A DNA stretch of 50,417 nucleotides, the filler included, from Bipalium vagum (taxonomy: Eukaryota): NCBI GenBank assembly GCA_037834085.1. It is 3 parts of 3 records of this genome, joined end to end, with 100 filler letters (N's around TTAATTAATTAA, not from the genome) between each part and the next. Parts side by side here need not be neighbours in the genome. Positions count along the whole stretch, not along the records: positions 17,460 to 34,712 come from JBBMKC010073419.1; 2 more parts are not named here. One strand, 5' to 3'. Under the pieces are notes generated by a model that saw only the letters and a program-made list of their open reading frames with translations, did not search any database and was not told where the DNA came from. The translations under genes were made by a program, and so were the position numbers. This document shows positions 22,758-28,420 of the stretch, piece after piece. The stretch's first letter is position 1; each line of letters begins with the position of its first letter.

Positions 22758-23479
22758 ATGGCGAATACAAATTTCATTACTGAAAATTGTCAAGCTGTAA
22801 ATTTTAAAAAATGTTTACAATGTTTTCAAATAAAACCTATTTCTGAATTTTATTAAAAAATGAATAAATGTAAAAATTGTTATAAATTTAATGTAACACA
22901 ACAAAGAAAGATTCCAGAAAGATACCAGAAAGATTTCAGAAAGATTTCAGAAAGATTCCAGTAAGATTTCAGAAAGATTCCAGAAAGATTCCAGAAAGAT
23001 TCCAGAAAGATTTCAGAAAGATTCCAGAAAATAGAATAAAATATAATGCCTATCTTAGAAATAGAAAACAAGAAAATCCAATGTTAAAACTTCAACAAAA
23101 TTTTTATACCAGTTTAAATAGATGTTTACAAGAACAGAAAGAATCTGAACAAATAAAAATGTTAATAGGATGTAGTTTTGATTTTTTATATAAGTGGATT
23201 GAGTTTCAATTTTATGATGGAATGACATGGGAAAACCAAGGATGTTTTTGGAATATTGATCATGTTCTTCCAGTTTTAAAATTTGATAATAAAGATCATT
23301 TTAAAATATGTTGGAATTGGAAAAATTTAAGACCATTAAGATCTGATAAAAATCTAAGTAAAAGTAATAAAATTTATTATGAAGAATATTTATTTCAAGA
23401 AATTAAAGCAAAGTATTTTGAAGAAGAATATAAAAAAGAAACGGAAATATTTAACAATTATTTAAAACGGATAAGATAA
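22758..23479 (+). pseudogene. C4 zinc finger + HNH-type endonuclease of large-DNA-virus/Polinton type, disrupted
   Basis: ATG 22758: KKCLQCFQIKPISEFY*KMNKCKNC (stop at 22854); then an 11-bp tandem array; then ORF 23081-23479 with MTWEN.G..WNIDHVLPV..F…CWNWKNLRPL…NLSKSNK. Confidence 0.8.
22905..23030 (+). repeat. Minisatellite, 11 copies of AGAAAGATT(C/T)C
   Basis: Counted directly: 11 x 11 bp (22905-23025) plus a partial unit. Confidence 0.95.
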
Positions 23480-23809
23480 AAGATTTCAAAGAAATTTAAT
23501 CCTTTTTTGCTTTAACTTCAAAATTAATCATCTTTCCACTTTCAAGATTTATTTCAATAAATTTCTCACTTAAAGTTCATAGTTTAAACTATGTTCTAGA
23601 TTTAAGGTATTAATTAAATTTAAAAGATATTTCTGATGTTTTACTTTTTATTAAAAATGATGAAGAAAATCTTTGAGATAAAAGGTTTGATATTTTCTGT
23701 AAACCAACTTCCATTTAATTTTGTTATTTTTAAATATTTTGTTATTATTTTATGTCAAATTGTATCAGTTATTAAAATATTTTTTCATAATTTTTGTCTG
23801 TATTCTTTT

Positions 23810-24016
23810 TTAGTTTTTTAATTTATTTAAAATTTTTAAAATTAAATGATCAAGATTATCATGTCCTGCTTTTTTAACTGCTAAATATTTGCTTAATGTT
23901 ACAAACTGATCAATAGTATGTTTTGGCTTGTAAATTTTATAACCTTCTCCTTCTCTTTTTATTTTATTAAGTTTGTTTATTTGGTCTTTAATAGTTTTAA
24001 CATAATTTGATGTCAT
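23810..24016 (-). CDS. Maverick/adintovirus-type conserved hypothetical protein fragment
   Basis: GEGYKIY…LSKYLAVKKAGHDNLDHLILKILNKL resembles the recurring Polinton motif G.G…L.LL.AS..AGN….EI..I..EL. Confidence 0.5.
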   Translation of the reverse strand: MTSNYVKTIKDQINKLNKIKREGEGYKIYKPKHTIDQFVTLSKYLAVKKAGHDNLDHLILKILNKLKN

Positions 24017-24216
24017 CTTTGATTTTAAGCTTTTGATTATTATCTATATAATTGTTCATTTCTTTTAGATTATTTTTTTGGAATATTTTTCTTCTGAATT
24101 ATAGAAAAAATGTGAATGTGTTGGAAAAGTAAGTGATTTAGTACATTTAAAAAATATTAAATCGGTTCCGAATATATATTCTGTTATTTCTGTTCATCCT
24201 ATTGATTTTCCATTAT

Positions 24217-24904
24217 CAAAAAATAATTCCTATTATTATTATACCAACCAAAAACATGATATTTATTTTTTGTTCCAAAATTTAAAATATCATCTTTTTT
24301 ATAAGTGATTTTTTCTGCAACTAATATTATTGTAAAAGGTTCAATTAAAGAATTAGAAATATTTCCAAATAAATATCCATCATTTTTTGCAGTAATTTTT
24401 AGACCAGAAACATTTTTACTTTTTGATATTGGTGATTTCCAAAATGAATGCCAAATATTTGGTTTAAATGTTTCATCTTCTGCATAAAAGATTTTTAGTT
24501 TTGAAAAATATTTTTTCGATTTTAGTTTTTTATCACGGGAATCTTTTTCTATATGTTTAATTTTTCATATCAAATTTTTTAATATTAATTGTTTTATCAT
24601 TTACATTAATTATTTTTTCACTTCTTATTATATTTAATTTATCATCTATATATTTTTTATTTACAACATCATTATCTTCAGTAGGATTTGGAATATTTAT
24701 TATTTTATTATTATTCATATTTAAAATTCCTTTCATGGAATCTCCAGTAACATTTAAAAATTTATTTTCACTTTCATTTCTAATAAAATTTACATCTTCT
24801 TTTATTTTATTTTCTTCATCTTCATCTTCATCATAATGATTTAGAGCATTGGTACAAATATATTCTCCATTTTCAGCAATATTAACAAAAACTTTATCGG
24901 CCAT
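24217..24904 (-). pseudogene. Fibre-like viral structural protein (frameshift near 24560)
   Basis: FLNVTGDSMKGILNMNNNKIINIPNPTEDNDVVNKKYID is the G..M.G.LNM..N.I.N…P….D..NK.YVD trimeric fibre/neck repeat. A second open frame (~24560-24217) continues with a beta-rich domain. Confidence 0.65.
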
Positions 24905-25342: not shown

Positions 25343-25689
25343 TTTTTAAAAATAAAATTTTAAATATTTGGATTTTTTTCGTTAACGTTTTTTAATCATG
25401 TTCAATAAATAAATCATCTTCATCTAAATATTCAGTATAAATCATTATTTTATTCAAATTGAATTGTCTCATTAGCTCTCTATAAGATAATTTAAATTCT
25501 TCAGCTACATCTCACCAATCATAATCCAAATATCTATCATGATAAAAACGACAAAAAGATAAGAACATCACTTTTAAAATTACAATTTGAGTTTGCGAAA
25601 AAAAAGATTGATGGGAAAATTTTGAGTTGGGAAAACGAGTCTTCGGCTCTAGCACCTTCCGTGTGTTTATTTATTTTTCTTTCTCAACA

Positions 25690-25962
25690 TTATTTTTTTG
25701 AGTTTCTTTTACTTTTTGAACAGTTGTTGCAATACCACCAGCAACTCCACCTGCTACTCCTAATCCTGCAAATATTGCTCCAAGAATTGGAATTAATGGA
25801 AGTACACCACCTTGTTTTTGTTCCTAAGTTTCTTCAACTTTATCTTTAATTTCATTAATTATTTTTTAGAGAGGTAATATTTTGTCACCATTGAAAGTTA
25901 TATATTTTGGTTTACCTATTTCGAATATATTTTGAAGTTTTGTTTCTGTAATTTCTGACATC
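25690..25962 (-). pseudogene. Adenovirus pX-like core/membrane-active peptide gene
   Basis: QKQGGVLPLIPILGAIFAGLGVAGGVAGGIATTVQK at ~25715-25825 resembles adenovirus pX (xxGG|xLPxLIPxIAAAI) and Maverick GGFLP ORFs; stops and frameshifts upstream. Confidence 0.7.
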
Positions 25963-27719
25963 TATTTTTTTAAATTAAAATTGATTTTTTAAATTTTGGG
26001 ATATTTTTCCCATGTTTGGATATTTTTCAAACCTTCTTATACTCACCTATACATCTTTATTTCTATTATTTTACAGTATCAAATGTTTTAAAAATACTTT
26101 TTATAATTCGAATGGTACTGCGTTGAAGTACTTTTTTATTTATAGAACTGGTTTTAATTTCTTAGAGTGAGAAACGGCGTTCCTCACCATGTCCAATTAA
26201 TATCTAATTTATTTTTAACAATTTTATTATTTATTAATTCATTATTTTTTATATTTGATATAAAATTAATATATCATATACTGCTTATATTTTACTTATA
26301 ATATTATAACTTTTTATATTATAAACGAGCTAACTTTTAATTTTCTATAAAAAAAAGTAATTTGCATTAAGATTATATCCTAAGAGTTTTAATCAAAATC
26401 AATGATGTTAATTAACAAGCATATGTGTAAAAAATATTTTGATAATAAATAGGATTTCTATTCTGTTATAACTTTTTTCACATTTTTTACATTCAGAATT
26501 AAAAACATAATAATCTCTTTTTAATGTGGAGCATCCCACAATGAACATTTTATTGTTAAAAAACTTTTAGTGATCAATAAACATTTGTTATTTAATATTG
26601 TGATTTTTACTTTTAATGTGAAAGATTTTTAACTATCGATCTTAAATTTCTCTTCAAATAACAATAATAATAATAATAACAATAATTATTATTATTATGA
26701 GAAATTGTAAAAAATAAAAATATATATTAGCAAAATTAAAATTAGCAACCTTAGGTTACTAAATATAGAAAAATGTAAAAAAAAGTTTTATAATAAGAAA
26801 ATAAAATACAATAAATTATATTATAAGTATTTTCATACTTTCTAAAAATAAATAAATTATAAAAAATATTATATAAAGCAACTAACTGGGGTAATGAAAA
26901 GGACGATAGAACGACGGGAAAAACAAGAGCCAGTAAACAATCATTCGAGTCTAACACACGTGTTTTCAATTGAAATTCCACTGATTCAAACAGCAACAGA
27001 TATTGTAAACATTCCATTGATCCAGACAGCGACAATTATTGTGTAAACAAAAGACATTCCACAGAGAAAGAGATTGTATAAGTAGGATACATTTCGGCAA
27101 AAAATTAGAGAAAGAATTATAGCTCGTTCATTCCGTGAATCATCAAATTTCAAGAACTTTAATTGATAAAATTTGTTGTTGATATTATTACTATTATTAA
27201 TATTATTATTACTTAATTGCGCATACTCTGTTTGATTCAATCAAAACAGCAGTATCCTATAACTTTTAAATTAAATAAATACAACCTTTAAGCAATCTTA
27301 ACCAATTGACTTAAAGCTTAAATTAAAACTTCTTCAAAATAAATACTCGGTGCTTAATCGAGGATCAGGTAAAATTTTAATGTTTTTCTTTCTCTTCTCT
27401 TTTTGTTTAAAGTTTGCACAGTCGCTAGCTGGCAAACTTCTAAAGGCTTTAGCACAATAGACTAAGTCTGTTTCTAAAGATTTCTGATCGATCAGTTAAA
27501 ATCTTATAAGTAATTTGTAATTTGAAGTTTGTGAAAGATTTTTACCAATAAATATTTTGATAAACATTTGTTCATTTCTTTTTGATTTGATTTGTGACAG
27601 TAATTTTTATATTTGTGCTTGAACGTTCATCCGTAAACCATTCTGATATTAAGTACTTTGTTAAGTGACCTAAAAGCCCAAGTTCGATCTTCTTTTAAAA
27701 TCAGCCACTTTTAGGAACT

Positions 27720-28420
27720 TAACATTAATATACTTCATTTATATTTCTTTTTTTTGTGCAAAATTTATTATTCGGAAATTCTATATTTCTAATTTCATTC
27801 TTTCTTTTTTCTTTGTAATTGATTTCTGAAATTTTATTTTCTTCATTCATACATTCTTTACATTTCTGATTATAAAATTCTTTATTATTACTTGTAAATT
27901 TTGAAAGTTAATATCATTTAAAAGTTTTATATTTCCTCAGTTTGAACATTGTCTATATTCCAGACAAATTTTATAATTTTTATTTTTAAAAATCTGAATA
28001 GTTTTTATTTAATTTACAAACACTAGCAGACTTCTATGAAAAGTCCACTCGAGCCCAATTGACCCGTAAAATTGTGAACCTGGATTTTTTTTGTTTAAAG
28101 GATTTAAAGATTTTAAATGTAATTCTCCTGGGTATTTTCCTGTTGTAAATTTCGTTAAGGAATTTATTATTTGTAATTTGTGATTGAATATCTCCTCCTG
28201 TTTTTATAAAAAAGATGGATATTTTTCTTGAATTTTTTCAATAGTACTTTTTTCAGTAGTATTTTTATTTGTACTAGTATTTTTATTAGCACTAATAGTA
28301 TCATTAGTACTTTTATTAGTACCTTTAGCTTTATTTTTCAAATGTACGTTTGTCTTTAGATGTTTTGATTTATTATATTTTGAAATATTTTGTCACAAAT
28401 TTCACAATACCATTTTTTAG
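27720..28420 (-). pseudogene. Decayed Lys/Asn-rich zinc-finger ORF, probably of the same viral element
   Basis: KWYCEICDK…NKSKHLKTNVH (C2H2, one frameshift, ~28340-28415) and a later KCKECM; intronless, with composition like 22.7-26 kb. Confidence 0.5.

Follow-up and report, generated by a model that had tools for sequence, protein, structure and literature searches.

A decayed virion-gene block with accessory HNH genes, probably a Maverick/Polinton remnant, in the genome of Bipalium vagum

The gene cluster at positions 22758-28420 of a 50,417-nucleotide stretch of Bipalium vagum DNA (assembly GCA_037834085.1; three parts joined by filler, hereafter the window) is very probably the remnant of one integrated Maverick/Polinton copy of the adintovirus type, with many diverged sister copies in the genome. 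It consists of a broken, partial block of virion genes and accessory HNH genes. Six-frame translation placed five virion and HNH parts where they were expected, with pX-like, protease, fibre-like and AGH open reading frames (ORFs) on the minus strand and a zinc-finger (ZnF) HNH gene converging on them from the plus strand. The first-pass annotation had described such a run, together with a C2H2 finger further upstream, and all the parts it named are present. It had also taken them for the decayed virion-maturation module of an endogenous Maverick/Polinton, which agrees with the adenain-type family of the protease and with the Maverick gene context of related metagenome loci. Since it lacks the genes that define a Polinton element, the locus is classed instead as a Maverick-derived fragment. 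Degraded Maverick remnants are an ordinary, well-known type of genomic fossil, of which this locus is a further instance.

The principal features are as follows.

22758..23479, plus strand: ZnF and HNH gene (His-Me finger, endonuclease VII-like, mimivirus L246-type), broken
23810..24016, minus strand: 'AGH' ORF of 68 amino acids (aa), open, resembling the conserved C-terminal part of a Maverick gene beside the capsid gene
24199..24564, minus strand: likely C-terminal part of the fibre gene, by position; its frame has no ATG of its own and overlaps the stop of the upstream part
24557..24904, minus strand: N-terminal part of the fibre-like gene, by profile match
24931..25342, minus strand: adenain-type (clan CE) cysteine protease in two frames, with a frame change between 25175 and 25143
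25671..25961, minus strand: adenovirus pX (mu)-like core protein gene with a hydrophobic GG-VLPLIP segment and two in-frame stops

The protease

The adenain-type maturation protease is present in the locus, though broken by the frame change, and its catalytic codons are kept (His 25131, Asp 25098, Gln 25044 and Cys 25020). The protease shares 55-63% identity with intact natural homologs. Its two frames are 72% and 64% identical to a natural homolog, P0001 (E 3e-37), and the C-terminal piece matched four of 23 candidates, all of them intact proteins of 135-152 aa at 46-63% identity. A profile of these four recovered 3190 proteins at E <=0.001 among 1.84 billion. When the profile of a 93-row family alignment was compared with known proteases, adenain (E 2.9e-8) and S273R of African swine fever virus (2.3e-7) ranked far ahead of SENP8 (0.078); in Pfam, Peptidase_C5 was matched by 30 of the 93 members and Peptidase_C48 by seven, at E up to 0.01. 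The structure model of P0001 (pLDDT 95) ranked adenovirus proteinase first in the PDB (E 2.2e-3) and also matched the adenains of MELD-virus and Terrapene adintovirus among predicted viral structures (TM 0.69 for Terrapene), and an atlas search was concordant with the adenain-type assignment. Single window pieces of the protease, pX-like, fibre and HNH genes went unrecognised in Pfam and PDB sequence searches; profiles of natural homologs alone succeeded.

A protease tree of 107 rows was drawn from 60 of 80 metagenome loci, 25 of 80 viral loci, 29 proteins and one window piece. The latter clusters with P0001-P0003 and P0013 (support 100/96) inside an 84-row Maverick-type side (99/92), apart from 23 of the 25 viral-contig rows. 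Our searches found no named member of this subgroup and the tree rows include no named reference; two scans of viral contigs with a narrow protease query returned no relative. Four proteins (P0024, P0104, P0141 and P0153) have pX-like, fibre or PLA2 parts attached to the protease, which repeats the gene neighbourhood; these joins are either natural fusions or gene-calling artefacts.

Core, fibre and AGH genes

All six window frames were searched with Maverick profiles built from natural loci, and the reversed window served as control. Both the pX-like core gene and the fibre gene of the virion module were found. The term pX-like refers here to the core protein, as distinct from the Polinton 'PX' penton. 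This gene matches P0024 at 25958-25773 (E 9e-4), and the aligned segment of P0024 in turn matches Pfam Adeno_PX (E 0.002). Its profile scored 17.2 bits in the window with no match in the control, and none of 1994 shuffles of the piece reached its 19.2 bits. The fibre profile reached 61.6 bits in the window versus a control best of 2.2; the fibre-like gene is 41% identical to P0104 over 51 aa (E 2e-11), and fibre relatives in one metagenome locus (L003) match Phage_T7_tail (E 1.6e-8). The reading frame at 24199..24564 had no family match and probably continues the fibre gene in another frame. The AGH ORF, which likely encodes a small virion protein, scored 9.5 bits in a shuffle test in which one of 1992 shuffles scored as high, and an atlas search gave no usable match for it.

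Gene context of the protease relatives

Gene neighbourhoods were analysed in the best 80 of 347 metagenome loci holding protease relatives, and the counts are lower bounds because many of these loci are short. At least 55 of the 80 carry one or more of the capsid, penton, packaging ATPase, protein-primed polymerase (pPolB) and integrase genes. A fibre gene lies next to the protease in at least 45 and a pX-like gene upstream of it in at least 28, while the order pX, protease, fibre recurs in at least 18; the AGH family is present in at least ten loci and the HNH family in at least five. Pfam searches of chosen ORFs from these loci identified the double-jelly-roll (DJR) capsid, DNA_pol_B_2, Pox_A32, rve, PLA2, T7 tail fibre and Adeno_PX. 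The closest parallels in layout come from a short-protease subgroup (L001-L011 and L024), in which L003 and L024 have the window's order of pX, protease and fibre and L001 has, like the window, a C2H2-like ORF before the protease. The proteases of this subgroup and of the five loci with an HNH gene beside the protease are only 35-44% identical to P0001.

A repeated family

Two sequencing runs contain the stretch, here X1 and X2, with no RNA run among those listed. Over 20-32 kb, X1 holds 13,917 matching contigs, 8,708 of them less than 95% alike (1622 at >=99% identity, 3587 at 95-99%, 4945 at 90-95% and 3763 below 90%), and thousands of contigs are 80-100% alike over the cluster. Summed depth in X1 runs from 4,778 to 15,580 over 22.4-26.0 kb and from 2,985 to 19,892 over 27.2-28.8 kb, falling to 365-1,136 in the bins at 26015-27217, and each flank, by contrast, has single contigs, near-identical to it, at depth 18-24. 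This contrast between cluster and flanks points to a repeated, diverged family of which the window holds one decayed copy. The X1 contigs point to many copies and yield neither their number nor their positions. Run X2, from another study and under another organism code, contains 280 contigs, with pieces over the fibre, protease and pX regions.

At about 21410-22200 a non-coding repeat abuts the cluster with a summed depth of 45,000-59,000 in X1, far above the Maverick block. It holds no tRNA, Rfam match or terminal repeat, and may be either a separate element or a Maverick end.

The ZnF-HNH genes

A stop codon within the zinc finger and a frame-changing 11-bp tandem array (22905-23030) disrupt the plus-strand HNH gene. 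It is 54-55% identical to P0182 and scores 164.6 bits against its family profile; 19 of 23 candidates proved to be relatives (37-66% identity), and the HNH profile made from Maverick loci reached 69 bits in the window versus 3.5 in the control. Every one of the 18 aligned family members hits phrog_1035 (endonuclease VII). By fold, the P0182 model matches mimivirus L246 (E 3.5e-15) and the intron-encoded endonuclease of Bodo saltans virus, while the family profile matched no solved structure under E 0.03. The window gene has in common with these proteins and phrog_1035 a ZnF, a helix and a His-Me finger with D-H-x-x-P and Asn motifs, and differs from the mimivirus and Bodo saltans virus endonucleases in being a broken, stand-alone gene within a Maverick-type block.

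The remains of a second ZnF-HNH gene, absent from the first-pass annotation, lie in two pieces about 1.2 kb apart.

27752..27963, minus strand: first piece of the second ZnF-HNH relic, 44-56% identical to residues 1-69 of P0203 (E 1.4e-7)
26462..26524, minus strand: second piece, 67% identical to P0185 over 21 aa (E 1.6e-5)
26525..27250, no strand: low-copy stretch containing AAT runs and interrupting the second relic; its summed depth is low versus thousands on either side

The low-copy stretch is likely a later insertion, and one X1 contig joins 26521 to 27801 (side 45). Another X1 contig joins 22759 to 23810 across the plus-strand gene; its short side spans 22 letters, and it gives only a hint of a copy without the HNH gene.

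Because giant-virus contigs often carry the HNH family (225 of 244 matched stretches), the label 'NCLDV-style' (nucleocytoplasmic large DNA viruses) given to this gene at first pass was fair. The further suggestion that it marks an undescribed lineage did not hold. The family stands directly before the protease in five of the 80 Maverick-type loci (L012, L016, L017, L022 and L036), so it is not a marker of a new lineage, and the published Polinton maps of 10.1101/2023.08.22.554363 already show endonuclease and fibre genes. In those five loci the HNH gene is upstream of the protease and co-oriented with it, whereas in the window it is downstream and convergent, with the second relic upstream. 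A quick tree placed the window HNH with weak support (SH-aLRT 80) on a side that includes the Maverick-linked L012 and L016.

Probably the HNH genes derive from giant viruses or phages and were selfish endonuclease genes that the element carried as passengers. A more specific and rather doubtful proposal, to which the two relics here and the contig joined across the plus-strand gene might point, is that this copy comes from a strongly amplified, unnamed Maverick subgroup whose protease is very short (about 135 aa), and in which giant-virus-type HNH genes act as homing cassettes gained and lost between copies. If true, this would offer a system for studying endonuclease traffic between giant viruses and animal Mavericks. 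The part of the literature that was covered held no paper naming an L246-type gene in animal Mavericks.

Two diverged tandem units of 93 bp lie at 22475-22655, immediately before the HNH start; both have a hairpin-like core rich in G/C, and a short Pro/Glu-rich minus-strand ORF (22554-22342) adjoins them.

Core genes and termini

The first-pass annotation had recognised no pPolB, integrase, packaging ATPase, capsid or termini, and this absence was upheld; the penton and terminal repeats were likewise not found in the window. For pPolB, a profile of 22 natural sequences scored at best 3.9 bits in the window versus 5.4 in the control, and tblastn of 3002 natural-locus ORFs against the window gave no pPolB match. 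No rve integrase was found in or near the cluster, the best score in the window being 9.1 bits at 36.2 kb (iE 0.04). DJR capsid and penton profiles peaked at 6.1 and 4.1 bits, outside the cluster and at control level, and the A32/FtsK packaging ATPase at 3.1 bits versus 2.2 in the control. The search for terminal inverted repeats returned low-complexity arms of 70-80% only, and blastn no self-match; no target-site duplication bounding the block was found. Rfam had no match in 20.5-29.5 kb and no tRNA was found in the window.

A working ancestor would have replicated by means of a protein-primed polymerase, inserted itself with an rve integrase and enclosed its DNA in a double-jelly-roll capsid. 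During particle maturation its protease would have cleaved the precursor of the pX-like core protein behind a Gly-Gly motif, and its fibre would have served in attachment. The present copy no longer has its genes for replication, integration and the capsid, and it is interrupted by stops, frameshifts and an insertion; for these reasons it is predicted to be inert.

A pair of 261-nt inverted repeats at 19-279 and 2989-3249, 86% complementary and 2.7 kb apart, was seen elsewhere in the window; the region has internal direct duplications at 2.3 and 3.5 kb.

Alternative origins

Several points weigh against a Maverick remnant with many sister copies. The 50-kb window contains no pPolB, integrase, ATPase, capsid, penton or terminal repeats, and the closest protease homologs, P0001-P0003, entered the comparison as protein sequences. 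The tree includes only one frame piece of the window protease (45% of columns), and Foldseek E-values against the PDB are only about 2e-3 for the P0001 model. The AGH match is weak: in the whole-window scan its 8.8 bits barely exceed the control best of 7.4, which makes it the weakest assignment. Summed contig depth, moreover, is not copy number, and X1 is possibly the window's own source.

The block could instead be a short non-autonomous Maverick derivative, amplified as such through the polymerase and integrase of intact elements. The repeated signal over 22.4-26.0 and 27.2-28.8 kb, its fall to single-copy level on the right and the lack of any core-gene trace are in keeping with this, and Polintons without whole gene sets are known (PMC4028283). 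Against this, neither a pair of terminal inverted repeats nor a target-site duplication was found around the block, the AGTAGT and ACTACT motifs (five and three occurrences in 50 kb) have no bounding arrangement, and the contigs are unable to reveal shared ends. We regard this origin as improbable.

Far less credence is due to an endogenised segment from a giant virus or from a Polinton-like virus (PLV), as opposed to an animal-type Maverick. It would account for an HNH family that abounds in giant-virus contigs and folds like mimivirus L246, and for the intronless ankyrin-RING relic that adjoins the cluster. However, in the 79 viral HNH loci kept, out of the 244 matched stretches, for examination of their neighbours, the Maverick protease, pX-like, fibre and capsid profiles were found in none and the ATPase in three. 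The window protease falls on the Maverick-type side of its tree, the window HNH sits, albeit weakly, among proteins that include Maverick-linked ones, and the ankyrin-RING gene lies on a single-copy contig. An origin of this kind is largely refuted.

It is slightly harder still to credit that DNA of a free virus or of another organism was joined to the genome by assembly error. The window does have N gaps elsewhere, and no run contig spans the whole stretch; against this, the stops, frameshifts, tandem expansion and insertion fit a genomic fossil, the GC content of the cluster (22%) is close to the window's, and identical single-copy contigs reach both edges.

A cellular SENP/Ulp1 pseudogene amid unrelated chance ORFs, to which the seven Peptidase_C48 matches and the common clan and fold might point, is refuted and can practically be dismissed, since C48 is not the best match (adenain is six orders of magnitude better than SENP8) and the gene context is not cellular, three neighbours independently matching Maverick genes in their usual order. 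The first-pass annotation had named cellular matches without syntenic viral context as its refutation, and these did not materialise in the profile, structure or locus-context results.

Relation to known elements

A remnant of a Maverick/Polinton of the adintovirus type, the reading that we prefer, can be set beside described systems. Polintons encode pPolB, rve integrase, ATPase, protease, capsid and penton (PMC4028283). Adintoviruses have adenain motifs and pX-like core genes and survive in germlines in degraded form (PMC8502044), and the pX-like core proteins of adomaviruses, with Gly-Gly adenain motifs, are apparently cleaved in virions (10.1101/341131). The window locus resembles adintoviruses among the Mavericks/Polintons (Starrett et al. 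2021, PMC8502044; Krupovic et al. 2014, PMC4028283) in its adenain-type protease, pX-like core, fibre-like gene, compact intronless layout and, probably, many genomic copies. It differs from them in lacking pPolB, integrase, ATPase, capsid, penton and terminal repeats, and in that all its longer genes are broken; degraded endogenous adintovirus copies, with which it compares, are described as widespread in animals (PMC8502044, PMC4028283). In the supplement file of PMC8502044, as far as available, three motifs and the term 'HNH' were unmatched, and the Cupiennin and Adintoc names could not be assigned to window ORFs.

HNH domains have been reported within Polinton polymerases and PLV helicases, and Polinton maps show separate endonuclease and fibre genes (10.1101/2023.08.22.554363, PMC11161782). 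Among planarians, Polintons are targets of PIWI-interacting RNAs (piRNAs) in Schmidtea (PMC8532177) and DNA/Maverick elements are expanded in Dugesia (10.64898/2025.12.11.693146). The window locus is likened to these by description only, as high-copy DNA/Maverick content in AT-rich flatworm genomes that is piRNA-silenced in Schmidtea. PMC6431247 served as general background only.

Taken alone the locus has little significance, degraded Maverick/adintovirus remnants being common in animal genomes. It does draw attention to a repeated Maverick family overlooked by ORF-based annotation, and contributes one example of a stand-alone HNH gene of giant-virus type within Maverick-type elements. Its importance would be larger if the protease subgroup proves unnamed and the HNH genes prove mobile.

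Other features of the cluster and window

Three further minus-strand ORFs belong to the repeated region or its edge.

25392..25568, minus strand: small ORF with one internal stop, from sequence only
28009..28420, minus strand: C2H2-finger ORF relic in several frames, a pattern seen by eye
28466..28801, minus strand: degraded ORF interrupted by internal stops, on the right-hand margin of the repeated region and itself repeated in X1

The small ORF had no relative among the 3002 ORFs of 160 loci, and the relic at 28466..28801 had no family match. The C2H2 finger, at about 28.4 kb, is a pattern only, split over two frames, and Pfam was silent on its pieces. Two short motifs at 28.0-28.2 kb resemble PLA2X, a virion gene of the Alpha (Mayetiola-class) module, a likeness to PLA2X ORFs that 13 of 300 shuffles matched as well, and a homolog search with this C2H2/PLA2X-like region found none.

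To the right of the cluster, at 29541-31140 on the minus strand, is an intronless gene with ankyrin repeats and a RING finger, spread over three frames with a GC content of 33%, on a single-copy contig without differences in X1. It is likely a pseudogene or retrocopy.

The window as a whole has a GC content of about 25%, and Pfam detected DDE transposase remnants in it (Tc5/DDE_1 at 18-19 kb and DDE_3 at 46 kb). Its AT-richness and these remnants fit an animal genome. The decayed Tc5/pogo, Tc1 and mariner-like transposase remnants found by Pfam span 17676-19075 and 46170-46938, both on the minus strand, and others were recognised by eye at 10998-11469, 12346-13251 and 37511-37690.

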